A stretch of 62,076 nucleotides of DNA, counting the filler, from Candidatus Rokuibacteriota bacterium (lineage in GTDB: Bacteria > JAUVQV01 > DATDCY01): assembly GCA_031406795.1 (NCBI GenBank). It is 5 parts of 5 records of this genome, joined end to end, with 100 filler letters (N's around TTAATTAATTAA, not from the genome) between each part and the next. Parts side by side here need not be neighbours in the genome. Positions count along the whole stretch, not along the records: positions 1 to 30,389 come from JANOHV010000206.1; 4 more parts are not named here. One strand, given 5' to 3'. A model generated the notes under the pieces. The model saw nothing but the letters and a program-made list of their open reading frames with translations, was not told the DNA's origin and did no database searches. Both the position numbers and the translations under genes were made by a program. This document shows, in pieces, positions 1-55,308 of this stretch (within the stretch, counting starts at the first letter, position 1; each line of letters begins with the position of its first letter).

Positions 1-661
1 GCATGCCGCGGTCGAGAAAGAGGTTGACCAGCGTGCGGTGCAGGATGGTCGCGCCGACCTGGCTCTTGATGTCGTCGCCGATCAGCGGCAGCCCGGCGCT
101 CTTGAAGCGGTTGCTCCAGTAGCTGGTCTGCTTCCAGGCGCCGGCCTCGTCCTGGACCCAGCCCGAGGCGATGAAGACCGGGATGCAGTTGATGAAGCCG
201 CAGCCGCCCTCGAGGGCCTGCTCGACGTACCACTTGGTGGCCATTTCGCTGCCGACGGGCAGGAAGTTGACCACGACGTCGGTCCTGGTCTCGCGCAGAA
301 GCCGGGCGATGTCGGCGGTGGGGCCGGGGGCCTTGTGGATGACGGAGGAGAGGTAGGTGCCGATGCCGTCGTGGGTCATGCCGCGCACGACGGTGACGCC
401 CTGGTGGGGCACGTGCGCGAAGGTTGTGGTGCAGTTGGGGGGCGCGAGGATCGCCTGGGAGAGGTCCTTGCCGACCTTGTCGCGGTTGATGTCGATCGCG
501 ACGGTGAACTCGATGTCGCTGATGCGGTAGCCGCCGAGCACGGGGTGCATCAGCCCGGGGATGAACTGGTCGTGCGCGGTCTTGCGGTAGTACTCGATGC
601 CCTGCACGAGCGAGGAGGCGCAGTTGCCCACGCCGACGATGCCTACGCGAATCTTGCCCAT
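1..661 (-). CDS. ino1: myo-inositol-1-phosphate synthase (5' part; runs off window start)
   Basis: Minus-strand translation MGKIRVGIVGVGNCASSLVQGIEYY...FLPVGSEMATKWY...GDDIKSQVGATILHR, typical INO1 motifs; AGGAGG RBS upstream of the ATG at 661; not in the supplied ORF list because it is open-ended. Confidence 0.92.
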   Translation of the reverse strand, partial: MGKIRVGIVGVGNCASSLVQGIEYYRKTAHDQFIPGLMHPVLGGYRISDIEFTVAIDINRDKVGKDLSQAILAPPNCTTTFAHVPHQGVTVVRGMTHDGIGTYLSSVIHKAPGPTADIARLLRETRTDVVVNFLPVGSEMATKWYVEQALEGGCGFINCIPVFIASGWVQDEAGAWKQTSYWSNRFKSAGLPLIGDDIKSQVGATILHRTLVNLFLDRGM

Positions 662-822: not shown

Positions 823-2052
823 CTACGCTTTGCGCCTCCGCAACGCTTCGAAGCCAGTCAACGACAGAAGAGCCAGCAGCGTGATCAGCGCCCATCCGGG
901 AAGCGTGGGAACAGGGATGACTCCCGGAGGAAGGGCCGGGTTGATGGTCAAGATCGCGCTGGCAGGCGCAGGGTTGTTGCCGTTGGTGGTTTGCAAAGCG
1001 CCGGCGGCGATCGTGTTGGTGTAGGTGCCCGCGACCGTACCGGTTACATCCACTGACATCGCACAGGAGCCGCTGCCCGGGATCGAACGCGTCGCCGGCA
1101 ATGTCACGGTGGAACCGCCGGGGTTGGCGACGACCGCCCCGCTGCCGAGACAGGTGGTGCTGGCGTTGGGGGTGGGCGCGATCACCAGGCCGCTCGGCAG
1201 GGTGTCGGGGAACGCAGCGGTGATGGCGGCGGCAACGGCGTTGGGGTTCGTCAGGGTAACGACGAGCCTCGAGACCCCGCCCACACCGATTTCAGTCGGG
1301 GCAAAGCTCTTGAGGATCGCGGGCGGGATGAGAACCGGCGGCACGGCGCAGGCAGGAGGCACCGTGACCGTGTCCGCATTGACCGTGACTGTCCCGCCAA
1401 AAGCCAGGGCTCTCCCCGTCAATGTTGCGGCACCGCCTATCGTGATACCCGCGGCGTCCAGGATATTTCCCGTGAACGTCGAGGATGCCCCAAGCGTCGT
1501 GGCGGCGATGGGAGTCCAGAACACATTGTCGGCGCAGGCGCCAGCCAGGACGACCCGGGAATTGGCCCCGGTAGTCAGCGCGCCGCCCGGCCTGAAGACG
1601 TAAACGCCATCGCCGCTGAGCGTCACCACACCGTTTGCGACGATATCCATGGCGCCGGTGCTGGAATAACAGCCGGGAGGAAAAGTCCCCGGCGGATTGG
1701 CCCCGACCGTTACCCCGCTCAGCTCAACCGCAGTGCCGAGAGAGACGCAGGCTTGACTGTTCAGATTCGCCAGGGCGGAGCCTTGATCCAGCCCTACGGC
1801 AGGAGGACAAGGAACAGTAACCACGCCACCACCGATGAGCAGCGGTGCGAACGTCCCGGGTCCGGTAGTAAAACAGACATCCCCGCCGTTCACGGTGGTT
1901 GCCGCCCCGTTGCCGGTATAGGTGCTGGAAGTGACGCCATAGGCGCCGGTCGTTCCCAGAGGGGGCGCTGTCGCCGCCAGCGCAAGGCAGGGCCCACCGA
2001 GCAGCACCGCCAACCCAACACTCGCCAGAGTACTCAGGCACTCGCTCTTCAT
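823..2052 (-). CDS. DUF3494 ice-binding-like protein with additional DUF11-like beta-sandwich domain and IPTL-CTERM-type sorting signal
   Basis: Signal peptide MKSECLSTLASVGLAVLLGGPCLALA; DUF3494-type motifs (FPPGCYS, GDGVYVF, NVFW, ATTLGASSTFTGNIL, LTGRALA); KSFAPTEI..FPDTLPSGL domain; C-terminus VPTLPGWALITLLALLSLTGFEALRRRKA. Confidence 0.85.
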   Translation of the reverse strand: MKSECLSTLASVGLAVLLGGPCLALAATAPPLGTTGAYGVTSSTYTGNGAATTVNGGDVCFTTGPGTFAPLLIGGGVVTVPCPPAVGLDQGSALANLNSQACVSLGTAVELSGVTVGANPPGTFPPGCYSSTGAMDIVANGVVTLSGDGVYVFRPGGALTTGANSRVVLAGACADNVFWTPIAATTLGASSTFTGNILDAAGITIGGAATLTGRALAFGGTVTVNADTVTVPPACAVPPVLIPPAILKSFAPTEIGVGGVSRLVVTLTNPNAVAAAITAAFPDTLPSGLVIAPTPNASTTCLGSGAVVANPGGSTVTLPATRSIPGSGSCAMSVDVTGTVAGTYTNTIAAGALQTTNGNNPAPASAILTINPALPPGVIPVPTLPGWALITLLALLSLTGFEALRRRKA

Positions 2053-2194
2053 GATCAACCCCCCTCGCTTAGGATGACTCCGGCTTCGCCGGATTTCAAA
2101 ATCAGGCACTGCGTCTTCTTGCAGCATCAAAGGTATTACCTCCTCGCCGATCAGCTTCAGCTGCTGCGCACACTTTCCCTCTCGGGGATCTCTA

Positions 2195-2210
2195 TGCATC
2201 AAATGTGCCG
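2195..2210 (-). promoter_or_regulatory. putative sigma54 (-24/-12) promoter of the first ice-binding gene
   Basis: Minus strand CGGCACATTTGATGCA = GG-N10-GC, about 140 nt upstream of the ATG. Confidence 0.5.
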
Positions 2211-2478
2211 TCCTTGGCTCTTATTTCGGCTGCAAAGCTCAAGTGACAGGAAAGATATACTATTTCGTCTGCGTATCGGCAATGTGACTGCCTGACGACC
2301 ATCACTGCCAAAGGGCGGATTTATGAAACAACTCGCCCACGTCGCCCCCCGAGTATCTCAGGTCCTGTTTCATCAATCAACAGGAATTTCGCGAAACCCT
2401 GCTGTCTCGTAATCCTGTTTTGGGCGTTTTGACACTTTGAGACATGATCGTGCTTGTCACCTGATCACGAGCACCCCA

Positions 2479-2678
2479 GATCCGCGCGTACGCGTGGATC
2501 CAAAGGCAGAGGAGGCATTTCAACCACTGAATAAGCCGGTTTTCGTGCATGAAGCACGGTGTGACAGAGGTCAAGCATCGTTTGAAGAAGGCATTGCGAT
2601 CAGAAATGAGCAACGACTCGGATAAATCCGGACCACGTGACAAGCCTGACGCTCCTGATCCGCGCGTTACGCGCGGAT
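2479..2678. repeat. ~200-bp palindrome-bounded intergenic element, copy 1
   Basis: GATCCGCGCGTACGCGTGGATC (2479-2500) and GATCCGCGCGTTACGCGCGGAT (2657-2678); the interior aligns with copy 2 at 26055-26256. Confidence 0.85.
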
Positions 2679-2723
2679 TTTGGTGCACGGGAAGAGCGTT
2701 CCTCGGCGGGACCTCGGCGAGAA

Positions 2724-2755
2724 ACGAAAAGGGGCGCTTTCGCGCCCCTTTTCGT
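2724..2755 (-). terminator. Rho-independent terminator downstream of second ice-binding gene
   Basis: Perfect hairpin ACGAAAAGGGGCGC-TTTC-GCGCCCCTTTTCGT. Confidence 0.8.
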
Positions 2756-2782
2756 GCTGCAGAATCAGAACAGCGGCGACGA

Positions 2783-3634
2783 CTACACCCGGCGCCTCCG
2801 CAATGCTTCGAAGCCGGCCAGACTCAGAAGAGCCATCAGAGTGATGATCGCCCACTCGGGAAGCGTGGGAACGGGGGTGGGGCCGGGGGTGGGGCCCGGG
2901 ACCGGCACCGGCGCTGGTGCCGCCGTCGCCCCGCAGAAGGCGGCCTCGATAGTGTTGGTATCAAGTGTCACCGCGCCATTCCGCGCCAGAGTTCGACCGG
3001 TCACCGTGGCGCCGGTGTTCAGCGTGATGCTCGTCAGCGCAACGATATTCCCCAGGAATGACGTGGTTGTACCGAGGGTCGCCGAACTGCCCACCTGCCA
3101 GAAGACGTTGCACGGCGATCCGCCGTTGCTCATGACGACACTCGAGCCGCTCGCCGTGGTGAGCGTGCTCCCGATCTGAAAGACCCAGACCGCGTTGGGA
3201 TTGCCTCCGGCGTTGAGCGTGAGGGCTCCGGTCAACTGCGCCGACGTGGAAAAAGAGTAGACACCGGGCGTCAGCGTCAACACCGTGCCGCCAGTGCCCA
3301 ACACCTGACCCGTCAGGTCCGCGGTGACTGGCTGGCCCGCCAGATTGGTGTACAGCGTGGTCGTGGAATTCTGGGCCGCAAGCGCGACGCCGTCGGCAGC
3401 GTTTGTCGTGCCGAACACGAGCCCCGGAGGAAAGCCCGTTATCGAACTGGCCGCGCCGGGACTGAGGCCCAGAGCGCCCCTGATCACGCTCGGTCCGGTG
3501 TTGGTCACCGTCGTGGCGCCCAAGACCGCAAAACTCTGCGCCGATCCCAGCGACTGCGCCAGCGCGAGGGAGGGGCCGAGGAGAAGCACAGCGAATCCGA
3601 CAGCCGTCAGGACACTGAAGCGCGCGTGTTTCAT
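2783..3634 (-). CDS. DUF3494 ice-binding-like protein with IPTL-CTERM-type sorting signal
   Basis: Signal peptide; LGSAQSFAVLGATTVTNTG, ITGFPPG, TLTPGVY, VFQIGSTLTTA, NVFWQVGSSATLG, GRTLARNGAVTLDTNTI are classic DUF3494; Pro-rich linker; tail VPTLPEWAIITLMALLSLAGFEALRRRRV; AAAGGAG RBS. Confidence 0.92.
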   Translation of the reverse strand: MKHARFSVLTAVGFAVLLLGPSLALAQSLGSAQSFAVLGATTVTNTGPSVIRGALGLSPGAASSITGFPPGLVFGTTNAADGVALAAQNSTTTLYTNLAGQPVTADLTGQVLGTGGTVLTLTPGVYSFSTSAQLTGALTLNAGGNPNAVWVFQIGSTLTTASGSSVVMSNGGSPCNVFWQVGSSATLGTTTSFLGNIVALTSITLNTGATVTGRTLARNGAVTLDTNTIEAAFCGATAAPAPVPVPGPTPGPTPVPTLPEWAIITLMALLSLAGFEALRRRRV

Positions 3635-3841
3635 TGTTAAACTCCTTTCGGCAGAGTTACTGTTTATACTCTTGTGTTGATTTGATTATTTTGAGCTTCA
3701 TATTCTGCCGATCAAATCTATATCATCCCGATCCGGGGTTTGCAAGCGCAAACCAGCGCCGTTCCGGCGATATTGATGGAGGGCAATTTGCCGCAGATGC
3801 GCAGTTGACTTCATGGCGTCCATCCCATAAAATCGTTCGCA

Positions 3842-4219
3842 GTGACTCACGCGCAGCCAGTGCTCTATTCGGTTGATTTCAGTGATTGCGGGGCCCTCGC
3901 CGCGCAGAAGCCGGAGGAGATTGCCGCCACATTCGTTGCCGCGCTGGAGCGTGCGGGCGCGACAATCGTTCACGCGGTCTCCCACGCCTTCCCCGGAGCG
4001 GGCATGACCTGCGCCCTCATCCTGCGCGAATCGCACGCTGTCCTGCATACCTGGCCGGAGACGGGCACGGTAAACATCGATATTTTTTCCTGCTCGATCA
4101 GGCTGAACAGCCAGGAAGCCATCGACGAGTTGAGCCGGGCGTTCGGCGCGCGCCACGTCTCGGTCCAGCAGATAGCCCGTGCCGACGGACATCTCCCCCG
4201 GCCGGACCCGCGCCGCTGA
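3842..4219 (+). CDS. speD: S-adenosylmethionine decarboxylase family (pyruvoyl) proenzyme
   Basis: LILRESHAVLHTWPE self-cleavage motif (E-SH) and DIFSC; 125 aa, class 1B size. Confidence 0.85.
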   Translation: MTHAQPVLYSVDFSDCGALAAQKPEEIAATFVAALERAGATIVHAVSHAFPGAGMTCALILRESHAVLHTWPETGTVNIDIFSCSIRLNSQEAIDELSRAFGARHVSVQQIARADGHLPRPDPRR

Positions 4220-5636
4220 GTTCGTGCTCCGGGCCGCGGCCTGGAGCATCGGCATCTTCGGGCTGCTGCGGCTGGACTGGGTCGAGCAGCATGGCCTTCT
4301 GCCGCTGACGCAGTTGCAGGGGTGCGTGGCGGCCGGGCTCTGCGGCACGCCCGCGGGACCCATCACGGCAACGCTGGCGTGCAGCGGCGCCGACGTTCTG
4401 GCGATTTGTCTCGGCGCGATCCTGGCCTACCCGGTGCGGTGGCGCACGCGCCTCGTTGGTGCCGCTTCCGGCGTGGCGGTCATCCTCGCCCTCAACACGC
4501 TGCGCATCGGCACGCTCGGCCGCCTCGCCGCCTCGCCGTCGCTGTTCAACGCCTTCCACGTCTACGTCTGGCCGGCGGCGCTCCTGCTCGCCGTCGGCGG
4601 CTACGTCTTCGCCTGGATGCGCTTCGCGGACCGGCGGCAGCCGCCCGTGAGCCGGTCCATCCCCACGTTCGCAACCGCCACCCCGCCCGCCGAGTACGCG
4701 ATTTTCCGGCCCACGCGCCGCTTCGCGCTTCTCGCGGCGGCCTTGCTGCTGATCTTCACCGCTGCCGCCCCGCTCTACCTCCAGAGCACCCATCTTCTGA
4801 GCGTGGCCGCGTTCATCGCGCGCGCTGCCGCTGCGGCGCTTCGCCTGCTGGGCATCGAGGCCGTGGCAACGGCAAACCAGCTCTGGACCTCCCGGGGCAG
4901 CTTCCTGGTCACCCAGGAGTGCATCTCCACGCCGTTGATTCCGATCTACCTGGCGGCGGTCCTCGCCTTTGGGGGATCGTGGCGCGCCCGACTCCCGGCC
5001 CTGTTGGCTGCGGTGCCGCTTTTCGTCGGGCTCGGCATCGCGCGACTCCTGGTGGTGGCCCTCCCGGTGTCCCTCGCGGCCTCGCCGGTCTATTTGATTC
5101 ACGCCTACTTCCAGATCCTGCTGGCCGTGGTTGTTGTCTTTCTCGCCGCACTCTGGCGCCGCCCGGACCGGGGGACGGCGACGTGTCGGGCTCTCCTTGG
5201 CGTGGGGTCGGGCATTGCCTTCGTTCTGCTGCTGGGCGGCCCCCACACCCGCTTGATCCAGCACGCCGCCCGGGTCCTGGGCGGTGCCGGGATCGCCGGC
5301 ATCGTGGGCCCGCCGCCTGACGACCCGCAAGGAGCCATCGCGCTGCTGCCCGCCTTCCAGGTCGGACTCTACCTGGCGCTGGTCGTTGCAGCCGGCGCAG
5401 CGTTCGCCTGGAGGAGATTCGTCGCCGGCCTCGCGCTGCTCGGCCTCTCCCAGCTGGCGACCCTGATGGTTCTTTCGCTTCTTGCCGGCCGCGTCGGCAC
5501 TTCACTTCAGGTGCAGGGCGTCCGCGCCTGGGCCGTGGCCGCGCCGCTGCTCGTCCTGGCCGCCCTGCACCTCTTGCGGCCGCCGGGCGGGCTCGCGCAG
5601 TCGAGACCTCCCGGGAATGGCGGCGTCCGTGGTTGA
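4179..5636 (+). CDS. exosortase/archaeosortase family protein with two tandem catalytic domains (XrtH-like)
   Basis: Multi-TM protein; triad 1 C68 (TLACSG), R109 (LNTLRI), H127 (FHVYVW); triad 2 C248 (TQECIS), R289 (GIARL), H308 (IHAYFQ); adjacent to IPTL-CTERM-type targets. Confidence 0.8.
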   Translation: MPTDISPGRTRAAEFVLRAAAWSIGIFGLLRLDWVEQHGLLPLTQLQGCVAAGLCGTPAGPITATLACSGADVLAICLGAILAYPVRWRTRLVGAASGVAVILALNTLRIGTLGRLAASPSLFNAFHVYVWPAALLLAVGGYVFAWMRFADRRQPPVSRSIPTFATATPPAEYAIFRPTRRFALLAAALLLIFTAAAPLYLQSTHLLSVAAFIARAAAAALRLLGIEAVATANQLWTSRGSFLVTQECISTPLIPIYLAAVLAFGGSWRARLPALLAAVPLFVGLGIARLLVVALPVSLAASPVYLIHAYFQILLAVVVVFLAALWRRPDRGTATCRALLGVGSGIAFVLLLGGPHTRLIQHAARVLGGAGIAGIVGPPPDDPQGAIALLPAFQVGLYLALVVAAGAAFAWRRFVAGLALLGLSQLATLMVLSLLAGRVGTSLQVQGVRAWAVAAPLLVLAALHLLRPPGGLAQSRPPGNGGVRG

Positions 5637-7293
5637 AGCCCCCCTTTCGCCGGAGGCGGGCCGGTTGCCGTCACCGCTGACCCCGGTGCGCACGGAAGTG
5701 TGCTGGCGGGGGGCTGCGGCGGTCGCGGCGGCCGCTCTGGTGTTCACCGCGGTCATCGCCGCCCCCGTCCTTCTCGCGCCCTCCGAGCGCGTCTTCGGCG
5801 CAGAGATCGTCGGGCGCAACCACGACCCGTTCACCGTGATGCTGCAGTACCTGCGCCCGATCTCCCTCGGCCTCTACACCCAGCCCGTCACCGACGTCGC
5901 CGGCGCGCTGCTCGCGCGGGTGATGAACCCGGTGACGGCATACAACCTCCTCACCCTGCTGAGCTTTCCCCTCTCCGCCGCGACCGCGTACCTCCTCGCC
6001 CGCCACCTCGCGCTCTCCCCTGCCGGAGCCGCCCTGGCGGCGCTGGCCTACGCGTTCTCCCCCTTTCATCTCGCCCACGCCGCCTACCACGTGCACATTG
6101 CCCAGACGCAGTGGCTCCCGCTCTACCTGCTCGCGCTCTTTCGCTGCCTCGACGACCCGACCCCGAAGGCGGTCGGGCTGCTCGCCGTCGCGACCGCTGG
6201 CGTTACCCTCTCGAACTTCTACGGGGGCTTGATCGCCGCCGTCATCACCCCGGTGGCCATCGCCGCCTACTGGCTGGGACGAGCCAATGCGGCCGGGCGA
6301 TCGACGCGCCGGTTGCTCGTCACGATCGGAAGCCTGCTGCTGATCGCCGGCGCCGGGATCGCTTACGTCTGGTCCGTGGCCCCGGGGGTCGTCGCCGACC
6401 CCGTGGCCGTCGCCTTCCGCCGCGCGGACCTCTTCCGGTACAGCGCGAAGTGGTGGGCGTTCTTCGTTCCGCCCCTCCAGCACCCGGTGCTCGGCGACAT
6501 CGCGCGGCGCTTCTGGCTCGACTCCGGCATCGGCGGCGGCATGCTCGAGCAGCAGGTGAGCCTCGGTTGGGGGATCATGGCGCTGGGTCTCGTCGCGGCC
6601 TCGCGGTGGTTGGCCCGGGATCGACGGACTGCGGCGCTCCGGAGCGTGCCGATTATCGCCGCACTCGCGGTCGCCGCGTTCGTGTGCTCGCTCTCCCCCG
6701 AGCGCAGGATCGGCCCGTTCACCATAGTCCGCCCCTCGGGCATTCTGTACGGTGTGGTCCCGATGTTCCGCGCGTATGCCCGCTTCGGTGTGGTGGTCCA
6801 GCTCATGGCGGCGCTGCTGGCGGGCATCGGCGCGGAGTGGCTGCTCCGCGCGGGGTCGCGACGGGGGAAGATCGCCTGCGCGGCGCTGCTGCTGCTCGCC
6901 GTCGGCGAGTACGCGGTCTGGCCGCCATCGCTCTGGCGGGACGTGCTGCCGACCGCCGCACACCGCTGGGTCGCCCGGCAGTCGGTCGGTCTGCGCGTCC
7001 TGGACTGCGCGCGGTCCACGACTGCGGAGAGTTCGGTGCCGTGGTTGACCGGACGGCAGCTGGTGCCGGCCGGCGGTCAGTTCGACGACTGCACGGCGCC
7101 GGATCTCCCCGGCCGGCTCGCGGCCGCCGGGTTCACGCATCTGCTCGTGCGTCGCGAGACCACGGCGGGGCGGTGGTTCGCGAGCCACCCTCCACCGGAC
7201 GGACTGAATCGCCTGGAGCATTTCAGCGACAGCGATGTCTTCGCGGTCGCGGCTGCGGCTGCGGCGCCCCCGGCCCCGGGAGGCCCGCCTTGA
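5617..7293 (+). CDS. multi-pass membrane protein, GT-C-like glycosyltransferase (YfhO/PMT-like)
   Basis: N-terminal loop Asp (RNHDPF), AYNLLTLLSFPLSAATAYLLARHL, AYAFSPFH, QWLPL and FRAYARF motifs typical of GT-C-type membrane proteins; start overlaps the exosortase 3' end. Confidence 0.6.
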   Translation: MAASVVEAPLSPEAGRLPSPLTPVRTEVCWRGAAAVAAAALVFTAVIAAPVLLAPSERVFGAEIVGRNHDPFTVMLQYLRPISLGLYTQPVTDVAGALLARVMNPVTAYNLLTLLSFPLSAATAYLLARHLALSPAGAALAALAYAFSPFHLAHAAYHVHIAQTQWLPLYLLALFRCLDDPTPKAVGLLAVATAGVTLSNFYGGLIAAVITPVAIAAYWLGRANAAGRSTRRLLVTIGSLLLIAGAGIAYVWSVAPGVVADPVAVAFRRADLFRYSAKWWAFFVPPLQHPVLGDIARRFWLDSGIGGGMLEQQVSLGWGIMALGLVAASRWLARDRRTAALRSVPIIAALAVAAFVCSLSPERRIGPFTIVRPSGILYGVVPMFRAYARFGVVVQLMAALLAGIGAEWLLRAGSRRGKIACAALLLLAVGEYAVWPPSLWRDVLPTAAHRWVARQSVGLRVLDCARSTTAESSVPWLTGRQLVPAGGQFDDCTAPDLPGRLAAAGFTHLLVRRETTAGRWFASHPPPDGLNRLEHFSDSDVFAVAAAAAAPPAPGGPP

Positions 7294-8108
7294 CGCGATC
7301 CGCCAGCCAGGACAACCGATCCGCAGCCCCACCCGGATCCGCGTACCGCCGCTTCTGGGAAGACCTGGGCGAGGACTTTCCGGACCTTGCCGGAGCCGCC
7401 TCCACCCGCTTCTATGCTCAGAATGAGCGCCGTCTGTTCGCCGAGCACTTCCCGCCGCTGGAGGGGCTGAAGATTCTCAAGAGCGATCTCTGGGACGAGG
7501 CGAGGAACACGCGCATTCTCGTCTGGGCGGCGGGGCAGGGCGCGCAGGCGTTCGGCGTCGACATCTCGCGGCCGATCGTCGTCCAGGCGCGCGCCGCATT
7601 CGACCGCGCACCGCTGCGTGCCGCGGTTGCCGACATCCGCGAATTGCCTTTCGCCGACGCGAGTTTCGACGCCGTCTACTCGATGGGGACCATCGAGCAC
7701 TTCCGCGACTCGGAGCGCGCGCTCAAGGAACTGGTTCGCGTGCTGCGGCCGGGCGGGTGCGCGATCGTCGGCGTCCCGAACCGTCACGACCCGTTCCTCC
7801 GGCCGCTGCTCAGCGCCGCCCTTCAGGCCCTGGGGCTCTACGCCTACGGCTATGAGAAGTCCTTCTCGCGCCGTTCGCTGAGAATGATGCTCGAGCGCTC
7901 CGGCCTGCGGGTGACCGCCGAGACCGCGATCCTGTTCCTGCCGGGCTGGCTGAGGATGCTCGACCTCGCGTGCCAGAGCTGGTGCCGGCCGCTCGCGCGG
8001 GTCACCGGCGCCCTCGTCCGGCCTTTCGCCCTCCTCGATCGCCATGTCCCGGCCGTCAGGAGGCATGGGTACCTGCTGGCTACCGTTGCGGTGAAGCCCG
8101 AGGCCTGA
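7290..8108 (+). CDS. class I SAM-dependent methyltransferase-fold protein with atypical motif I
   Basis: GVDIS, ADIRELPFADASFDAVYSMGTIEH, ELVRVLRPGG; TTG start overlaps the upstream TGA (TTGA), GGGAGG RBS; Gly-rich loop replaced by KILKSDLWDEA. Confidence 0.8.
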   Translation: MTRSASQDNRSAAPPGSAYRRFWEDLGEDFPDLAGAASTRFYAQNERRLFAEHFPPLEGLKILKSDLWDEARNTRILVWAAGQGAQAFGVDISRPIVVQARAAFDRAPLRAAVADIRELPFADASFDAVYSMGTIEHFRDSERALKELVRVLRPGGCAIVGVPNRHDPFLRPLLSAALQALGLYAYGYEKSFSRRSLRMMLERSGLRVTAETAILFLPGWLRMLDLACQSWCRPLARVTGALVRPFALLDRHVPAVRRHGYLLATVAVKPEA

Positions 8109-8189
8109 GAAAACTCGGCAGGGGCGCTTCAGGTCGTGCGATGCGACTCTTGTAACTTTCGCTCAAGTCTCTACAATCAAATTATCGCC

Positions 8190-9470
8190 ATGAAATTCGT
8201 CAAATTGGCTTTGCCGTTGCTGATCGTCGGCTTGTCGGCGTTTCTGTGCTTTCACATCATTTCACAGTCCTTTTCCTGCCAGCGGAACAAGAATGACTAT
8301 GCCGAACTCAACCACGTGAAGTACGGACTGTTCAGCGTCGACGAATGGAAACGACAGATATCCGCGATCCTCATCGAAGAAATCAACAAACTGTCGCTTT
8401 CGGAGGCGAATGAACAGGAGCTGCGAAAACATGTCGAAGTTCAGTTGAACACGCTGATCGACAATGTCGACAAGAAGATCCGGCAGGCGAATTCCGGCTC
8501 CGCCGGCGGCTGGGTCAAACAATCCCTGATGAACATCTTCGTCAGTCTGGAAGACATCAAGAAGGGTATCCCCGAGTATGCGGATGGGGTCATCCGTGAG
8601 GTGACGAAAGCGAAGACGACGGGTCGGATCAGGCTGGCACTGAACGAACAGTTGAAAATCGTCGTCGCGCAGACCTTCGAGGCCCAGGACAAGACCCGCC
8701 TGCGGCGCATCCTGTACCGGACCGATGCCAAGGACATCCGGAGCGCGAGGACCAGCCTCGAGAACGCGATTGCCGTCGAGCAGGCGCTGATTGCCCGGGA
8801 GGCCATCCTGTTGATCGCGCTGTCGGCTGTCCTGTTTGCCATGTCCGGTTTCAGCAGGCAACCCCTGGCCCCGTCCCGGTACCTGTTTCTCCTCCTGTTG
8901 CTGATCATGCTGCTGCTGGTCGGGGTCACCACGCCCATGATCGACATGGAAGCGAAGATCTCGCAGATGAGTTTCGTGCTGGCGGGGTATCCGATCCAAT
9001 TCGAGAACCAGGTCCTGTATTTCCAGAGCAAGAGCATCCTGGACGTCTTCTGGATCATGATCACCCACCGGGACCTCCAGATGAAGGTGGTCGGGGTCCT
9101 GGTGATCACCTTCAGCGTTCTTTTCCCGCTGCTGAAGATCGTCTCGTCTGTCGGCTACTACTGCAACTACCGGCACGCAAGGGAGAACCCGGCGATCAGG
9201 TTCTTCGTGCTGAAATCCGGGAAATGGTCCATGGCCGATGTGCTGGTGGTGGCGATCTTCATGGCCTATATCGGCTTCAACGGGATCATCACGAGCCAGT
9301 TCGGTCAATTGAGCTCGGCGAGCCAGGAACTGGTGATCCTGACGACGAACGGCACCTCCCTCCAGCCGGGGTATTACCTCTTCCTGAGCTACACGCTGCT
9401 GGCGTTGTTCCTGTCCGGGTTCCTGTCCCGAACCAGCCGGGCACCCGAGCGCGCACCGGCAGACGCCTGA
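8190..9470 (+). CDS. paraquat-inducible protein A (PqiA) domain membrane protein
   Basis: C-terminal FSVLFPLLK..GKWSMADVLVVAIFMAYIGF PqiA signature after a long helical N-terminal region. Confidence 0.75.
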   Translation: MKFVKLALPLLIVGLSAFLCFHIISQSFSCQRNKNDYAELNHVKYGLFSVDEWKRQISAILIEEINKLSLSEANEQELRKHVEVQLNTLIDNVDKKIRQANSGSAGGWVKQSLMNIFVSLEDIKKGIPEYADGVIREVTKAKTTGRIRLALNEQLKIVVAQTFEAQDKTRLRRILYRTDAKDIRSARTSLENAIAVEQALIAREAILLIALSAVLFAMSGFSRQPLAPSRYLFLLLLLIMLLLVGVTTPMIDMEAKISQMSFVLAGYPIQFENQVLYFQSKSILDVFWIMITHRDLQMKVVGVLVITFSVLFPLLKIVSSVGYYCNYRHARENPAIRFFVLKSGKWSMADVLVVAIFMAYIGFNGIITSQFGQLSSASQELVILTTNGTSLQPGYYLFLSYTLLALFLSGFLSRTSRAPERAPADA

Positions 9471-9556: not shown

Positions 9557-10738
9557 ATGAACTCACAAAATCCGGTCATACTCTGCGTCGACGACATCGA
9601 GGCGAATCTCGAGCTGCTCGAGAGCATCCTCCTGCCGCGGGGTTACACGGTCGTCAGCGCGGCAGGCGGGAAAGACGCTTTGGGGAAGCTCAGAAATCAG
9701 GCGATCGACCTCGTGCTTCTGGATGTCATGATGCCGGGGATGGATGGCTTCGAGGTCTGCCGCCAGATCAAGAATGACGAGAAACTCCGGAGCATACCGG
9801 TCATCATGATTACCGCACTGGCCGCGAAGGAAGACCGGATTCGCGGTATCGAGGCCGGGGCGGAGGAGTTCCTGTCGAAGCCTTTCGACCAGACGGAGGC
9901 GCTCGCCAGGATCAAGATGCTGTTGAAGGTGAAGGAACTCGACGACGAACGAACGCGGGCGGCACAGGCGCTGCAAGTATCCAATGACCGACTCCGGGAG
10001 CTCGAAGCGCTGCGGGACAGCCTGGTCCACATGGTCATTCACGACCTGCGCAACCCGCTGACGGTCATCATCAACTTCGCCCATTTTCTTGAAACCGCCG
10101 AACGGGAGCAGCTCTCCGAGAAAGGCCGGAAATACGTCGGGTACATCATAAAATCCACCGACTTTCTGATCGAGATGACCAGCTCGATGCTCGATGTGAG
10201 CAAGATGGAGTCCGGCCAGATGCAGCTGAAGCTCGAGGCCTGCGATCTCGGGGCGATCGCCCGCGAGGTCGTCTCGCGGCTGGAAGCCCTGAAAGGCAAG
10301 ACTCAGATCACGCTGGCCCCGCCCGGGCAGCCGGTTCACGTGATTGGCGATGCGCAGCTCTTGTCGCGGCTGTTCCAGAATCTCGTCGGCAACGCCCTCA
10401 AATTCGTGCCCGCGGATACCGGCAGCATCGACATCGCGGTGGAATCGAAAGGCGGCCGGATCCGGTGTGCCGTCCGGGACAACGGGCCCGGCATCCCCCC
10501 CGAGCACCAGGAGAAGGTCTTCGACAAGTTCTGGCAGGCGCAGGCCCGGGAGCAGGGGTTCAAGTATTCGAGCGGGCTGGGGCTGACTTTCTGCAAGATG
10601 GTCGTCGGGGCGCACGGTGGCAGGATCGGGGTCGAAAGCGCGGTTGGCGCGGGGAGCACTTTCTGGTTCGAACTGCCGCAGGACGGACCGCCACCAGTAC
10701 CGCAGGCAGGACAGCAGGAACAAGGGAGTCCCGGCTAA
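9557..10738 (+). CDS. hybrid response regulator / sensor histidine kinase (REC-HisKA-HATPase)
   Basis: ILCVDD..LLDVMMPGMDG..KPF receiver; HDLRNPL H-box; NLVGNALKF, DNGPGI, GLGL; alternative in-frame start at 9470. Confidence 0.9.
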   Translation: MNSQNPVILCVDDIEANLELLESILLPRGYTVVSAAGGKDALGKLRNQAIDLVLLDVMMPGMDGFEVCRQIKNDEKLRSIPVIMITALAAKEDRIRGIEAGAEEFLSKPFDQTEALARIKMLLKVKELDDERTRAAQALQVSNDRLRELEALRDSLVHMVIHDLRNPLTVIINFAHFLETAEREQLSEKGRKYVGYIIKSTDFLIEMTSSMLDVSKMESGQMQLKLEACDLGAIAREVVSRLEALKGKTQITLAPPGQPVHVIGDAQLLSRLFQNLVGNALKFVPADTGSIDIAVESKGGRIRCAVRDNGPGIPPEHQEKVFDKFWQAQAREQGFKYSSGLGLTFCKMVVGAHGGRIGVESAVGAGSTFWFELPQDGPPPVPQAGQQEQGSPG

Positions 10739-12825
10739 AACGCCATCCAGACGCTGAAGTGCCAGGCGAAGCTCGCTTCCCGTTCGGACGCGCGCGGGGC
10801 GGGGTTCCAGGCCAGATCGAGGCGCACGGGGCCGACGGGGGTCAGGTACTGGAAGCCGACGCCGATGCCGGCCCGAAAGTCCCGAAGGTAGTCCTTCCAC
10901 ATGACATCGGCGAGTTCCGCGGTGCTCACCAGGGCCGGATCGACATCCGCAAGCGAACGGTTCGGCGAGACATTGCCGAAGTCCGCGAAGACGCTGGCGG
11001 CGAAATTGCCGTAGATGCGTCGGCGCACCTCGAGCCCCGCGACCGTCGAGGCCAGGCCCCCCAGCGGATCGCCCGAAGCGCCCTTCGGCCCGAGCTGCTG
11101 CTCCTCGAAGCTGCGCACGCTGCTGTCCCCGCCGGTGAAAAAGCGCTCACCGACCGGAATGGCCTCGTTGCCCCGGCTCGGCACGACGAAACCCGAGTCC
11201 AGCCGCAGTCCCAGGACGAGGCCCGCGCCGAGCCCCTGAAAGTATTTCACCGCGGCCGTGCAGCGCAGGAAATCCAGCGTGCCGCCGATCCGCTGATCCG
11301 CGACCTCGACGGCCAGACCGCTCTGCCAGCCGCGCGACGGGTAGAACACGTCGTTGCGCCGGTCGATGTCGAAGTTGACTTTGACGCTGGCGGAACTGTA
11401 GCGCTCATCCCGGGCGTCGGCGGGGACGTCGGGGGAGAGCCGGGAGAGGTCATTGAAGCGAATCCCGTACCGCAACCCGGCCGTGACCCGGCCGGGGAAC
11501 AGGCGGTAGAGCCGCAGGGCCAGTTCCACTTCATCTTCGGTGTAGGCCGGCTCCTCCCGGAAGCGCCAGGAGAGCGGGAGGCTCAGCGAAAAATCGCTGC
11601 CGAGCACCCGCGGGTCGAGAACGTCGGCTTTCACGAACCAGCTTTTCAGCGAGACGCCCGCCTCGGCCCCGGCGCCGCGCATGGTGCCGAAGACGTTGCG
11701 GTCGCGGAAGCTGACGCGGCCGCGCAGCTGCTCGTAGGCGCCCCACCCGGCCTCCACGGCCAGCTCGCGGCCCCGAGCCTCTTCGACCTCAATCCGCAGC
11801 ACGCGCTCGGCGCCTTCCCCGACGAGGGAGTGGCCGACGCGCGAGAAGACGCCCGTGCGGTACAGATCCCGGAAACCGCCGAGCAACGCGGTCTCGTTGA
11901 ACCATTCGCCCTTGCGGACCGGGATGCGGGAGAGGATGAACCAGTTCCGCGTCCGCTTGTTGCCGACGACCTCGACCCGGCTGATCCGCACCCGCGGCCC
12001 GCTGGCGACCGTGACCCGGAGCACGACGTCGCCGGGCAGCTCTCCCGGCTCCTCGCGTACGACGGCCGCGGCGTCCGGGTAGCCCTGCGCGGTGAAGACC
12101 TCGGTCACGCCGTTGCCCAGGATCAGCGCCCGCCGCGGGTAGAACGGCTGCCCCGGCAGGCTGGACGCCAGCTTCGCGAGACCCGGGCCGGCATCGGGCA
12201 GGGCGTCGCCCTCGAGCAGCACGGCCGCGATCATCAGGCGGGTCCCCTCGTCGATCTCGAACAGCACGTCGGCGACGCTGCGGTCGGAGCGCAGCGTGAT
12301 CAGCGGCTCCCCGATCTTCACGTCCGCGAATCCCTCTTCCCGATAGCGCTGGACCAGCGATTGCCGGCCGGCGCGCAGGTCGGCCTCCACGTACGGGGCC
12401 CGGCCTTTCCCCGTGAGATACGGAAGCAGCTGGGCCGCGGTGAAGAACGCGTTCCCCGAGAAGGAGACCTCCCCCAGACGCACCAGGGGACCTTCGGCGA
12501 CCTTGAAGACCACGACGGTGTCGCTCCCCTCGCCCGCAATCGCGTGCTCGACCTCGATGAACGCGTAGCCCTTCCGGCGGCCAACGCCTTCCATCTGGAA
12601 GCCGGCATCTTCGGCGGCGGCCGCTCGTCGCGCCGGCTCCTCCAGCCCCGCCAGCTCGGCGGTGGCCGCCTCACGCAGGTGCCGCGTGCTGATGGCAGCA
12701 TTCCCCTCGATGCGCACCACCGTCGCCGCCCGCGCAGCCGGCGCGACGCTGAGCGCGGCGGCCAGGAGCAGTGCAGCCCTCCGGGCGCTCCTCGCTGAAA
12801 ACATCGCTGTTCCCCCGCCTCTCAT
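10735..12825 (-). CDS. tamA: BamA/TamA family outer-membrane protein (POTRA + Omp85 barrel)
   Basis: POTRA repeats (IEGNAAIS, FSGNAFF, VVGNKRT), ERFFTGGDSSVRSF, YLTPVGPVRLDLA, C-terminal Phe; ATGA overlap with tamB. Confidence 0.85.
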   Translation of the reverse strand: MRGGGTAMFSARSARRAALLLAAALSVAPAARAATVVRIEGNAAISTRHLREAATAELAGLEEPARRAAAAEDAGFQMEGVGRRKGYAFIEVEHAIAGEGSDTVVVFKVAEGPLVRLGEVSFSGNAFFTAAQLLPYLTGKGRAPYVEADLRAGRQSLVQRYREEGFADVKIGEPLITLRSDRSVADVLFEIDEGTRLMIAAVLLEGDALPDAGPGLAKLASSLPGQPFYPRRALILGNGVTEVFTAQGYPDAAAVVREEPGELPGDVVLRVTVASGPRVRISRVEVVGNKRTRNWFILSRIPVRKGEWFNETALLGGFRDLYRTGVFSRVGHSLVGEGAERVLRIEVEEARGRELAVEAGWGAYEQLRGRVSFRDRNVFGTMRGAGAEAGVSLKSWFVKADVLDPRVLGSDFSLSLPLSWRFREEPAYTEDEVELALRLYRLFPGRVTAGLRYGIRFNDLSRLSPDVPADARDERYSSASVKVNFDIDRRNDVFYPSRGWQSGLAVEVADQRIGGTLDFLRCTAAVKYFQGLGAGLVLGLRLDSGFVVPSRGNEAIPVGERFFTGGDSSVRSFEEQQLGPKGASGDPLGGLASTVAGLEVRRRIYGNFAASVFADFGNVSPNRSLADVDPALVSTAELADVMWKDYLRDFRAGIGVGFQYLTPVGPVRLDLAWNPAPRASEREASFAWHFSVWMAF

Positions 12826-15800
12826 TTGAACTTGAAGAGGATTCTCATCCCGGCGTTGTACTGATCGTAGATGTCCTTCTCGCTCGTGACGTACAAGGTG
12901 CTGTTGCGGCCGATCGGATTCTTCTGCAGCAGCAGGCGTGCGTCCACGGTCACGCTCCCGCTCCGGGTCAGCTCCCGGCCGATCTGCAACTCGATCCGGT
13001 CCTGGAGCGCGGTCTTTCCGGATTTTGACTGGCCCCCGAGAATCTGGCCGATGACGTTCTTGCCGAGGTACAGGGCCATCGGGGTCGCCAGGGAGGAGAC
13101 GGAGCCGCCCTCCGCGCTCCAGCTCCCCGGAGGCGCGCCGGTGAGTGCGAAGAGCAGCAGTTCCTCCTTCGGCAGGGGGGGGATTGAGGAGAGAATGATC
13201 TCCGGGGTGGCGAGGGTGCCGCCGATCTGGGCGGTGATCTCATAACCCAGCGTCTGCATCCGGCCGCCGAAATCGAGCGCGGGGCGGTCCGGGTCGCCTT
13301 CACGATACAGTACCGTGCCGCGTTCGATTTCGAGATTCCCCGAGGGGAGCATCACCCGGGCGGTATCGACAAGGATCGGTCCGCTCAGGATCGGCAGCAG
13401 GCCCGTCCCGGTGAGCCGCAGGTCGGGTCGGGCGGTACCGCGCACGACCGTGGTCCTGATCTCGAAGGGTTCGCGGGCGGTCAGACGCACGTCGAAGCGC
13501 ATGTTTCGCAGCGGCGGTTCGGGGAAGGAGATCCCGGCGAGACCCGGGCTCGGGCGTCTTGCCGACTTGTCCTCACGTGAAAAAAGGCTCGCGACGGTGA
13601 TGTCTTTCTGGTAGAGGCTCTTGGTCAGGGCCAGTTCGCCCGTCAGCGAGAGCGCGCTCAGCGGTCCGCGCAGCGTCAGATCGCTGTCGGCCCTGACCCG
13701 CAGCCCCTCGTCGCGGTACAGAAGAACGTTCGTGCCCAGGAGCCGCAGGTCGAGGTCAGGGTCGTCGGGGTGGGAAAAATCCAGGGACCCGGCGAGCGTG
13801 AATGGCGATCCGCCGATGTTGCCGCCGAACTCCCTCAGGGTCACGCGCCGCCGCGCCACGGTTGCCCGGGCGTTGAGGGAGTCGATCGGCGGCAGATCTT
13901 TGTAGCGGAATTCCCCACCCGCGATACGGATCTCCCCGGAGAGGACCGGGTCGCCGGCCGGCCCGTCGATCGCAATCTCGCCCGCCATGCTCCCGTACAG
14001 TCCCCGGAGCCCCGCCACCGATTTCCGCAGCCACCCGACATCCGGGGAGCTGAAGGAGGTGCGGAGGGCGAGCGATCCCGTCGCCGCGGCGCCGAGGTCG
14101 GCGAAGAGCGACGGGAGCGACGGCGGCGAGAACCACGCGCCCGACAGGGAGCATGAGAGCGCCGGCGATTCGAGCCGCACCTTCTCGGCCCGCGCCTCGG
14201 CGGTGCCCCAGGTCAGGGTTCCCGCAAGCGTAAAGGGGTCCGGCGGGGCGAAGCGGGTCCCGGGGGGGAACTGCAGCCGCTCCCCCTGGATTTCCAGGCG
14301 GGCTGCGGGTTCCTTCCAGGATCCGGTGACGACGACATCGGCCCGCAGCCTCCCCGTGACGGCATATGCCGGCGGGACGAGGAAGGACAATTCCTCCAGG
14401 GAGGGGATGCTCGCCTGAGCCCGGAGGGAGAGGGGACCGGGGCCAAAAATGGCCTCCGCGGTCAGATCCAGGGGAATGGTGCCCTCGCCCTTCACCGCCA
14501 GGCCCCCCGTTCCGGCCACGTCGAACGCACTGAGGCGCAGCAGACCGGGAGCGTATCGCGCCTTGAGGATGCCCCGAACTTCCCGCATGCTGCCGATGCG
14601 CCCCCCGGTGAACTCCGCCTCGACGGCGATCGGCGAGGCCGGCAGCGGCCCCGCGGCCCGCAGCCCGATGTGCAAACGGCCCGCCACGGGGATTCCCTCG
14701 CGCACGAACTCCGCGAGATACGGTGCCACGTCCGCGATCGCGATGTCGGCTTCCGCTTCGAGCACCTGCTTGTTCCGCAAGTCGTAGGCGCCCCGCCCGA
14801 GAAGCCGATCTGCGCCGCGGGTGACCTCGAGCGTCTCGATCTTCAACCGTTGCGGCTCTGCCGTGGCCTTGAGGACCACGTCGCCGACGCGCCGACCGCG
14901 GATGGAGATTCCCCGGCCGGAAACCTCCATCCGGCCGCCGGGCGCTCCCCGGGTCCCGGAGATCCGCGCCTGGCCTTTGAGCGTGCCCTGCAGCGGCGGC
15001 AGATCGAAGATCGTCGCGAGCGGTCCGAGGTCGGGGAGGTCGACCTCCAGTTCGCCGCCGATCGTCGTCTCCATCCTCCAGTCCGCCGTGCGAGGGGGCA
15101 GGACGACTCGCGCAGCTCGAAGGGTGACCGCCCCCCCCGCCGCGGCGAAGGATCCCGCGGCGATTGCGAGCGCTCTGCCCCGAACCGTCCCCGTCGCCGT
15201 CAGAAGGTGTTTCGCAGGCGTCCTGGCTGATAATTCCGGCGAGACTCCCACCAGGGCCGCCAGGGCAGGGAGATCGGCGGCGCTGAGCGCGAACGAACCG
15301 GAAAGGCTGTCGAGGACAGCGTCGAGGTCGGCGGCTGCGAGCGCGGCCGGCGAGAACACGACGTTCTGCGCGGTGAAGTGATTGCCCCCTTGCCGCACCT
15401 GCAGCGTGGGGATCTCGATCCTCCCCCCGGAAGCCCGCGCCTCCAGATCCACGTCCCCGAGCGTCTTTCCCGCGACCCTGACCCCCCGGCCCCGGAGCGA
15501 AACGCCGCCCTCCGGGTGTGCGAAGCTGCCCGCGCCGGAGATCTCGCCCCGGAGAGACCCGCTCAGGGGAGGCACCGGAAAGAGCGCCGACACGTCCGTC
15601 AAGTTCGGGATATCGACGGTTGCCTTGCCGCTGAAGGCGGTCTCCCCCCACCCCTGCCCCTCGGGCGGGAAGCTCATCGTGAGTGCAGCGAACGTCGCCT
15701 TCCCGGCTCGGGTCGCGAGGTCCGCCCGCGCGAACTGGAGCCGCCCCTTCTCCAGGGATCCCTCCAGCTGCAGCCGATGCGCAGGTACCGCGACGGAGCC

Positions 15801-17003: not shown

Positions 17004-17173
17004 TCGTTTTGCCGTGGGCCGCTCCTTGTATTCGCGCACGACGACGAACGCCGGCGAACTGAATGCGCCGCGATGCGCCCTCGCACGGCGGCCGCAATCC
17101 GCATTCATCCTGCCACGAGCATCGGCGGGTGGCAAGCCCGGCGCCGGTTGCGTCGACGGCTTTCAGCGACCGG

Positions 17174-55208: not shown

Positions 55209-55308
55209 NNNNNNNNNNNNNNNNNNNNNNNNNNNNNNNNNNNNNNNNNNNNTTAATTAATTAANNNNNNNNNNNNNNNNNNNNNNNNNNNNNNNNNNNN
55301 NNNNNNNN
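55209..55308. other. artificial contig linker
   Basis: N-run with TTAATTAATTAA. Confidence 0.97.

Follow-up and report, generated by a model that had tools for sequence, protein, structure and literature searches.

To what do exosortases attach the surface proteins that they sort? To our knowledge this question has been open since the family was defined, and hints at a mechanism have come only from rhombosortase and from the ArtA/PssD model of archaea. We analyzed a locus at positions 823-8108 of a 62,076-nucleotide stretch of DNA, filler included, from a Candidatus Rokuibacteriota bacterium (assembly GCA_031406795.1; the whole stretch is called the window here), in which two genes for secreted proteins with C-terminal sorting tails, the cargo, stand head-to-head with a four-gene operon. 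The core of the encoded system is a SpeD-like decarboxylase, an atypical methyltransferase (MTase)-fold enzyme and a two-site exosortase, usually joined by a membrane protein of the glycosyltransferase C (GT-C) fold, and the module serves one or two tail-bearing secreted proteins. It is very probable that these components are functionally coupled. We tentatively propose, with a confidence that falls a little short of even, that they form a dedicated exosortase system in which the SpeD-like and MTase-fold enzymes make an amine acceptor for the cargo, derived from S-adenosylmethionine (SAM), on a membrane carrier. The gene set may reveal the molecule onto which sorting enzymes of this kind load their surface proteins; because the accessory chemistry is carried along, sometimes in one polypeptide, and the cargo is single, the attachment question becomes directly testable. 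The features of the locus are as follows, by window position and strand.

3842-4219 (+): speD-like gene, 125 aa; PF02675, TIGR03330
4179-5636 (+): tandem exosortase gene, 485 aa; TIGR04178 in two stretches
5617-7293 (+): GT-C-fold membrane protein gene, 558 aa; AlphaFold2 (AF2) model and Foldseek
7290-8108 (+): atypical class I MTase-fold gene, 272 aa; Methyltransf_11
823-2202, likely 823-2052 (-): cargo 1 gene; partial DUF3494, DUF7933, sorting tail
2783-3634 (-): cargo 2 gene, 283 aa; secreted DUF3494 (ice-binding-like beta-solenoid), IPTL-CTERM tail
826-915 (-): cargo 1 sorting tail; PVPTLPGW, hydrophobic helix, RRRKA
2786-2875 (-): cargo 2 sorting tail; PVPTLPEW, hydrophobic helix, RRRRV
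3635-3841 (no strand): divergent intergenic region between cargo 2 and speD, 207 nt; presumed from the coordinates to be a shared promoter region

Translation of the window placed the six open reading frames (ORFs), their overlaps and their head-to-head layout exactly where the original prediction, made from the sequence alone, had put them. The speD-like and exosortase genes overlap by 41 nt, the exosortase and GT-C genes by 20 nt and the GT-C and MTase-fold genes by 4 nt (TTGA); from speD to the MTase-fold gene, the start codons are GTG, GTG, ATG and TTG. Homologues of the exosortase share its N-terminus (MPTD...), which supports the start assigned to it and therefore the 41-nt overlap with speD. 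Similarly, cargo 1 likely starts at the Met at 2052, since this start gives an N-terminal signal peptide.

Conservation and fusion of the components

Do the four genes travel together? The original prediction had named a lack of co-conservation as grounds for giving it up, and a neighbourhood search of related genomes found the opposite: the four genes are a co-conserved unit, linked to genes for tail-bearing cargo. The search covered 62 loci in 62 species-level genomes, mostly metagenome-assembled genomes (MAGs) of Vicinamibacterales/Acidobacteriota (three records carry the names of other phyla in their titles, perhaps as an effect of binning), and each component was counted only in loci with enough flanking DNA. 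The speD gene lies directly upstream of the exosortase gene in 58 of 59 assessable loci, a DUF3494 cargo gene lies within 3.5 kb upstream in 54 of 57, the GT-C gene follows downstream in 49 of 53, and the MTase-fold gene is present in 39 of 44. An intact tail ORF was recognized by pattern in 48/57 loci, and several of the long-read MAGs without one show frameshifts. All five components are found in 36 of 43 assessable loci, the misses being L005, L008, L014, L020, L036, L049 and L055. Two of these are instructive. In L036 the MTase domain is fused to the exosortase, and in the genome of L005 a speD of the same type sits on another contig between two DUF3494 genes, which indicates that the system is split there rather than lost. 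Among the 3057 clustered neighbourhood ORFs of the 62 loci, no other conserved neighbour, such as a GT2 glycosyltransferase or a transporter, was found; only Crp/Fnr-type regulators recur.

The locus closest to that of the window, L001, comes from a small separate phylum with only five genomes in the collection, and the system consequently spans at least two phyla. Its occurrence comprises Acidobacteriota (Vicinamibacterales), this small phylum and one metagenome bin labelled Methylomirabilia, and metagenomes of soil and fresh water contain it widely. For the double exosortase there are more than 1000 homologues in 90% clusters and 253 representatives at 50% identity (E <= 1e-30). Neither it nor the GT-C protein nor the MTase-fold protein has a specific model in the June 2026 release of NCBIfam.

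Divergent lineages keep the linkage while shuffling the gene order. In a sample of 401 Acidobacteriota genomes searched for the double exosortase at E <= 1e-20, at least 14 carry it (three candidates were scored per genome), and a PF02675 match lies within 4.2 kb of it in 12 of these 14, one exception being at a contig edge; PF02675 itself is matched in 133 of the 401 genomes and is without a match in 268. In divergent loci the exosortase is 36-45% identical to that of the window. The second exception, the genome G330, has two exosortase copies beside an fn3 cargo gene, while speD and the MTase-fold gene stand side by side elsewhere. The original prediction held that the decarboxylase and the MTase-fold enzyme are functionally tied to the exosortase, and this is borne out by fusion proteins: P0015 (728 aa) joins exosortase and MTase domains, and P0121 (862 aa) and P0122 (901 aa) join exosortase, MTase and AdoMet_dc domains in one chain. 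Among the best 150 representatives at 50% identity, 18 are at least 683 aa long; in the 10 long proteins scanned, an MTase domain follows the exosortase in all 10 and AdoMet_dc is also present in 2. The contig of the P0122 type reads cargo, fusion, GT-C homologue, and its cargo has IPT-like repeats and the tail SVPALPAW, followed by a helix and RQR.

Canonical single-domain XrtH provides a control. It scores above its cut-off in 44 of the 401 Acidobacteriota genomes, in open frames of ~170-250 aa, and no PF02675 match lies within 5 kb on the same contig in any of the 44 (0/43 when G029, a genome flagged as unpublished, is left aside). By comparison of the lists, 29 of the 44 genomes are without any PF02675 match. 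Since canonical XrtH occurs without speD, the accessory enzymes belong to the double-exosortase subfamily and not to IPTL-type sorting in general. It is a speculation that the extra chemistry is tied to the second exosortase domain, as XrtH needs no SpeD. Co-conservation, fusion, linkage retained despite shuffling and the absence of speD beside XrtH together make the functional coupling well supported.

The component proteins and their cargo

What does each protein contribute? A scan with profile hidden Markov models, which the original prediction had suggested, returned DUF3494, AdoMet_dc, TIGR04178 and Methyltransf_11; IPTL-CTERM was found for cargo 2 but not for cargo 1, and XrtH fell short of its cut-off (83.0 against 86 bits). 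The exosortase scores 46.9 bits against the signature TIGR04178 (cut-off 23), with one stretch in each half, which places it in the superfamily. Domain 1 comprises residues ~15-152 (window 4221-4634) and is the half that scores just below the XrtH cut-off, and domain 2 comprises residues ~178-326 (window 4710-5156), for which the nearest family is XrtX at 71.8 bits, far below the cut-off of 170. A conserved C-terminal region of four helices (residues ~330-465) matches no family. XrtH is a short single-domain protein of about 160 aa; the exosortase of the window is therefore not a member of XrtH (TIGR04177), being below the 86-bit cut-off and not single-domain, and in a six-frame genome search the double-exosortase family scores 38-60 bits against XrtH. 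The profile of the family has no match among Protein Data Bank (PDB) sequences.

The original prediction of a double exosortase describes a true tandem. Identity between the two halves is 28% (E 1e-4), their Cys, Arg and His residues line up, and C68, R109 and H127 in the first half and C248, R289, H308 and R327 in the second are invariant in 17/17 homologues of 54-77% identity; R148 is usual, not invariant, in the same 17. The spacings are C+41=R and R+38/39=R, and these match the quoted ArtA numbering when compared by numbers, not by direct alignment: the critical residues of ArtA are Cys173, Arg214 and Arg253 (PMC9263693). Given invariant residues and ArtA-like spacings in both halves, both exosortase active sites appear intact and look active.

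The SpeD-like protein belongs to the class 1b SAM decarboxylase (AdoMetDC) family by PF02675 (AdoMet_dc; 4.5e-27, 94.9 bits, cut-off 25) and TIGR03330 (83.1 bits, cut-off 75.65). Aligned to the Thermotoga maritima enzyme (1tlu), it keeps the pattern ...ESH..HTWPE...C, and the central catalytic region is very alike. The residues for processing and catalysis in T. maritima are S63, H68 and C83 (PMC10407285); in the present family E63, S64, H65, H69 and C84 are invariant in 23/23 relatives. In a tree of 62 SpeD-family sequences (124 columns; its bootstrap is not fully settled and some branches are long), the window falls in an exclusive exosortase-linked clade of 25 rows (99/100), and SpeDs of the window type are 26-38% identical to standalone SpeDs. 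The SpeDs of L063, P0121 and P0122 fall within the standalone-SpeD clade, those of L069 and L071 stand beside canonical high-scoring SpeDs, and the starred branches force at least three changes. For example, the SpeD domain of P0121 is 43-61% identical to standalone SpeDs of genomes without a double exosortase at E <= 1e-20. Recruitment from at least three SpeD branches suggests that what the system needs is the activity these branches share by ancestry, which would be SAM decarboxylation.

Three further observations concern SpeD. Mid-scoring Acidobacteriota SpeDs were considered as markers of hidden copies of the system and rejected, as neither an exosortase nor an MTase lies within 7 kb in 19 of 20 of these loci, and the remaining one has just an MTase-SpeD fusion. 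A 445-aa MTase-fold/SpeD fusion at L078:6975-8312(-) has no exosortase within 7 kb, on a contig that ends nearby, and a motif-I region unlike that of the proteins linked to exosortases; MTase and SpeD may also pair up for tasks other than sorting. Finally, L017:1559-1924(+) is a second, diverged speD (121 aa) ~2.5 kb upstream of the operon's speD, with a long branch in the tree.

The MTase fold called in the original prediction was confirmed by a Methyltransf_11 match (1.1e-20, 74.5 bits, cut-off 21.2), which begins at profile position 9-10 in 14/14 family proteins scanned. Motif I of class I methyltransferases is glycine-rich (E/DxGxGxG), and its glycine loop normally contacts the amino-acid end of SAM. 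In the present family motif I is absent and is replaced by the invariant K64-x-D66-L-W-D-E-A-x-N-T-R-I-L77, while D91 and D115, acidic residues expected to hold the adenosine, are kept. The acidic motif in place of the glycine loop fits a changed cofactor or reaction. In the ESM Atlas the protein falls only in generic "methyltransferase" clusters, from Acidobacteriota, Methylomirabilota and others.

The GT-C-like protein of the original prediction has the fold assigned to it. The product of 5617-7293 was modelled with AF2 at a predicted local distance difference test (pLDDT) score of 82.3 and a predicted TM-score (pTM) of 0.83, and a Foldseek search with this model confirmed the GT-C fold: there are 30 PDB matches at E <= 0.001, all GT-C among the matches listed, with modest TM-scores of 0.32-0.45. 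ArnT (5f15) is at the top, followed by AglB/STT3, AftD, DPY19, PglB, Pmt4 and ALG9/12. By sequence there is no NCBIfam and no PDB match, and curated families score below their cut-offs (YfhO 25.2, cut-off 28.5; PTPS_related 16.9, cut-off 26.4). GT-C enzymes carry an acidic catalytic residue in the first outer loop. In the present family D70-P71 and other first-loop residues are invariant in 29/29 relatives, and D70 lies in the loop between helices 26-52 and 71-79, of which residues 54-69 are below pLDDT 50. The relatives are mostly ~655 aa long with an additional C-terminal domain, and in most loci the stop codon overlaps the MTase start. In L064 the exosortase gene is followed at 10541-12547(+) by a gene for a 668-aa protein that has a DEPHY-like motif near its N-terminus (by eye) and no tblastn match with the GT-C protein of the window; it may be another GT-C family in the same role.

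The cargo proteins share their tails more than their domains. Both proteins of the window match Ice_binding/DUF3494 in Pfam (cargo 1, 3e-22, with DUF7933 at 4.4e-28; cargo 2, 2.7e-60), so that the ice-binding assignment of the original prediction holds for this pair; in other lineages it need not, the domain there varying (DUF3494, fn3, DUF4215, IPT-like repeats). The tails of the window pair are PVPTLPGWALITLLALLSLTGFEALRRRKA and, for the second of the pair, PVPTLPEWAIITLMALLSLAGFEALRRRRV. Cargo 2 passes both IPTL-CTERM models at its C-terminus (PF18203, 27.6 bits, cut-off 20.8; TIGR04174, 28.9 bits, cut-off 20.5); neither model reports a match in cargo 1, the tail of which is 80% identical to that of cargo 2 and residues 401-458 of which match midcut_by_XrtH below threshold. 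In divergent lineages the candidate cargo has DUF3494, fn3, DUF4215 or no Pfam domain and always ends in a [VA]P[TA][LA]P-like motif, a helix and basic residues.

How many proteins does one system serve? A profile built from 52 cargo tails was searched against five genomes of 4.1-8 Mb and gave a single match at E <= 4.5e-10 in each of the five, always the gene beside the operon, with the next-best matches at E > 0.05. Similarly, tail-like C-termini in the scanned loci are confined to operon-adjacent cargo genes. TIGR04174 matches in only 2/5 genomes searched and misses many relatives of the VPTLPQxF type. Two subtypes can be seen among the 52 aligned tails: VPTLP(E/Q)W-A/M-I..L..LLALAG..A.RRR, to which the window belongs, and VPTLPQ.F...LALGL...GY.RLRRR, which TIGR04174 mostly misses. 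We also note that Crp/Fnr-type regulators, recognized by eye (N-termini like ...FSQGD...YIQKGGIKLSVLS...), adjoin the cargo gene in 28/62 loci, often in several copies (for example L018:8002-8658(+), L013:2784-3458(+) and L044:7747-8400(+)), and may regulate the cargo; none was seen near the operon of the window.

The window comes from the chromosome of a diderm bacterium, as genes for DnaE and TamB/Omp85 show. G+C content is 70-72% at window 3501-8000, the four-gene operon, against 57-64% in the flanks, which may mean that the operon was acquired by transfer. Immediately downstream, where the G+C content is lower, window 8136-9470(+) encodes a PqiA-like membrane protein (PF04403, 1.5e-10), which was rejected as a part of the system because none of the 62 related loci has a counterpart. 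Adjoining cargo 1, window 2-661(-) holds the N-terminal part of a gene that by eye resembles that for myo-inositol-1-phosphate synthase (ino1); it was rejected as a hint of an inositol lipid because ~106 loci gave no ino1 match. Window 10735-17135(-), 2.6 kb from the operon, encodes an Omp85/POTRA protein (696 aa) and then a TamB-like protein (1437 aa), an outer-membrane assembly pair of the TAM type. Farther along are very long opposing open frames of 2909 aa and 1501 aa (window 17174-25903(-) and 21350-25855(+)) and, at window 50694-55256(+), a 1520-aa ORF that weakly resembles multihaem cytochrome c7 (1.5e-8), after which a 639-aa TPR protein is encoded.

A proposed acceptor pathway and its rivals

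How could these enzymes cooperate? We propose the following route. The cargo would be exported by Sec and retained in the membrane by its C-terminal helix, and the exosortase would cut it at the VPTLP motif through a Cys acyl-enzyme, a step that draws on family knowledge and on the ArtA mutagenesis quoted in PMC9263693. The decarboxylase and the MTase-fold enzyme, attached to the exosortase or next to it on the cytoplasmic face, would turn SAM into a primary-amine group, of aminopropyl type, on a membrane carrier, either by way of decarboxylated SAM (dcSAM) or by way of an amino-carboxypropyl intermediate that is decarboxylated afterwards. The GT-C protein would add or relocate a sugar-containing part of the carrier on the outer face. 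Finally, the amine would resolve the acyl-enzyme, leaving the cargo joined by an amide bond to a lipid or glycolipid of the cell surface. Cleavage is the best supported of these steps, followed by a common pathway for SpeD and the MTase-fold enzyme, then by the SAM-derived amine acceptor and last by the sugar step of the GT-C protein. That SpeD and the MTase-fold enzyme act in one pathway is suggested by their tandem fusion and by the adjacency they keep when unlinked from the exosortase, and the amine acceptor by analogy with the ArtA/PssD model and rhombosortase (PMC7157517).

A number of observations weigh against this proposal. SAM chemistry is cytoplasmic and the exosortase sites are expected outside, so that a flipping or export step would be needed, and no conserved flippase was found among the 3057 neighbourhood ORFs. 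The AF2 model of the exosortase, made from a 17-row alignment, has a pLDDT of 57.5, and its topology is readable only as a rough helix count. The MTase-fold protein is recognized by ordinary methyltransferase models, its closest relatives of known structure are true methyltransferases, acting on small molecules, phosphatidylethanolamine and phosphoethanolamine (8ys9, 4krh, 5wp5), and it has no spermidine-synthase (PF01564) match at E <= 0.01. The GT-C gene is missing in L014, L036, L049 and L055, and in divergent loci tblastn detected it in 3/10, leaving it missing from 7/10. Decarboxylases of Arg or Orn have arisen repeatedly among SpeD homologues (PMC10407285). Moreover, the operon speD is the only PF02675 gene in 5/5 genomes and in 5/5 further genomes, and spermidine-synthase-like domains occur elsewhere in long ORFs of five genomes; the operon SpeD could for these reasons also serve polyamine synthesis. 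Lastly, canonical XrtH systems exist without speD.

Which other explanations would fit the same gene set? In one, which we consider improbable, the accessory enzymes make no acceptor but decorate either the cargo or a glycan at the surface, and the exosortase attaches or releases the cargo independently; the GT-C protein would glycosylate the cargo, in the manner of oligosaccharyltransferase (OST), PMT or DPY19, and SpeD and the MTase-fold enzyme would add aminopropyl or methyl groups to the glycan or to a lipid-linked precursor. Exosortase A systems carry glycosylation-type partners (TIGRFAMs descriptions), the structural matches of the GT-C protein include the protein glycosyltransferases AglB/STT3, PglB, Pmt4 and DPY19, and its linkage is looser than that of speD and the MTase gene. 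However, it is the exosortase and not the GT-C protein that is found fused to MTase and SpeD domains, and speD and the MTase gene persist without a detected GT-C gene in L064, L065, L069, L070 and L072. The IPTL-CTERM surface-layer (S-layer) protein of the cultured Methylomirabilis lanthanidiphila likewise showed no glycans on the peptides covered, in a paper that does not name its sortase (PMC8671808).

We give an equally low probability to a second explanation, in which the SpeD-like protein is a neofunctionalized decarboxylase of Arg, Orn or a lipid-bound amino acid and the MTase-fold protein a genuine methyltransferase, for example one that N-methylates the resulting amine or a phospholipid head group. 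The two would make a special membrane lipid or small molecule, used by the double exosortase as acceptor or cofactor, with no part for dcSAM. Such neofunctionalization of SpeD is widespread (PMC10407285), the window-type SpeDs form a clade of their own at low identity to standalone SpeDs, and the relatives of the MTase-fold protein include the phosphatidylethanolamine and phosphoethanolamine N-methyltransferases named above. Yet the exosortase-linked SpeDs come from at least three lineages, some of them near ordinary or canonical SpeDs, which a shared AdoMetDC activity explains more easily; the central catalytic region is much like that of T. maritima AdoMetDC; MTase and SpeD are fused in tandem; and the MTase has an invariant acidic motif where the loop that binds the amino-acid end of SAM would be.

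More doubtful still is that the double exosortase cleaves and releases its cargo without transfer, its second domain, SpeD and the MTase-fold enzyme being regulatory or unrelated. For cleavage alone, the cargo tail suffices as a feature, but two intact sites and two metabolic enzymes that are conserved, and fused, across exosortases of 36-82% identity are hard to square with release, and related sortase-like systems attach their substrates (PMC7157517). We regard as very unlikely a housekeeping polyamine speD that stands beside the exosortase through the shared ancestry of close genomes, with no functional link: speD is indeed the sole PF02675 gene in both sets of five genomes and most of the 62 loci are from one order, but this view is contradicted by the fusion proteins and opposed by linkage kept despite shuffled order in divergent lineages, by the speD-MTase pair that holds together when separated from the exosortase and the speD that moves with the cargo genes in a split locus, by the 0/44 canonical XrtH genes near speD and by the 268/401 Acidobacteriota genomes without PF02675.

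The SAM-derived amine acceptor can also be taken further, to a bacterial pathway of the glycosylphosphatidylinositol (GPI) type, in which a hitherto unrecognized aminopropyl or amino-carboxypropyl transferase of the Methyltransf_11 fold, supplied by a dedicated AdoMet decarboxylase, would place a primary amine on a GT-C-made membrane glycolipid, and a two-headed exosortase would transamidate one chosen surface protein onto it. A GPI-like anchor was also where the original prediction ended, which is supported in part. This fuller version is unlikely in our judgement; if true, it would identify an exosortase acceptor for the first time and give dcSAM a role beyond polyamine synthesis.

Comparison with known systems

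Is such a system known already? The original prediction knew of no described exosortase system with this gene set, and no earlier description was found in the literature on exosortases and IPTL-CTERM, figures and supplements lying outside the scope. The closest parallel in sequence is XrtH/IPTL-CTERM, to which the first exosortase half is akin (83.0 bits) and of which the cargo tail is a variant, VPTLP followed by a transmembrane helix and RRR. The differences are that the present exosortase, at 485 aa and below the 86-bit cut-off, adds to the first domain a second one with its own active site and then a conserved C-terminal region, and that speD lies near the double exosortase in 12/14 genomes as against 0/44 for XrtH. 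An IPTL-CTERM tail is also found on the S-layer protein of M. lanthanidiphila, which is anchored in the outer membrane and the C-terminal tail of which escaped mass spectrometry (PMC8671808).

The closest parallel in logic is ArtA with PssA and PssD, known from Haloferax and syntenic as artA-pssA-pssD in Methanosarcina (PMC7157517): there, too, a sortase-like Cys transpeptidase is genetically tied to enzymes, among them a pyruvoyl-type decarboxylase, the product of which bears an amine. The original prediction took transfer onto an amine-bearing lipid in that system as established, which goes beyond the source, since resolution of the acyl-enzyme by an amine is what its authors themselves call a "speculative model" (PMC7157517). 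In contrast to ArtA-PssD, the decarboxylase here is AdoMetDC-like and not a phosphatidylserine decarboxylase, and, unlike PssA, the partners are an MTase-fold enzyme and a GT-C protein, the partners sometimes being fused to the sortase. Rhombosortase/GlyGly-CTERM shares a removable C-terminal tripartite signal and involves a glycerophosphoethanolamine-containing moiety (as cited in PMC7157517). Its protease is non-homologous, and its acceptor is an ordinary phospholipid head group. The present system further differs from it in its accessory genes, as we know of no dedicated biosynthetic partners of rhombosortase.

XrtA/PEP-CTERM loci carry a decarboxylase dependent on pyridoxal phosphate (PLP) together with glycosylation genes and serve many cargo proteins per genome (TIGRFAMs descriptions). 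The present locus resembles them in combining an exosortase with a decarboxylase and sugar-handling genes and differs in that the decarboxylase is pyruvoyl-dependent, not PLP-dependent, and in that there are one or two cargo proteins; we know of no such fusions in XrtA systems. In eukaryotic GPI anchoring, a Cys transamidase exchanges a C-terminal hydrophobic signal for the amine of a glycolipid, the glycan of which is built by GT-C mannosyltransferases. With this the present system shares an analogy of logic only: the transamidase is non-homologous, and ino1 is not conserved in related loci. Finally, the SpeD/SpeE pair of polyamine synthesis also combines a class 1b AdoMetDC-family proenzyme, here with all processing and catalytic residues, with a Rossmann-fold enzyme of SAM type. 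Unlike SpeE, the partner in the present system lies outside the spermidine-synthase family and is without the glycine-rich loop, and both members are linked to a membrane exosortase or fused with it. The system also suggests that an AdoMetDC-type enzyme may have a role other than in polyamine synthesis and that the class I methyltransferase fold has an unusual branch.

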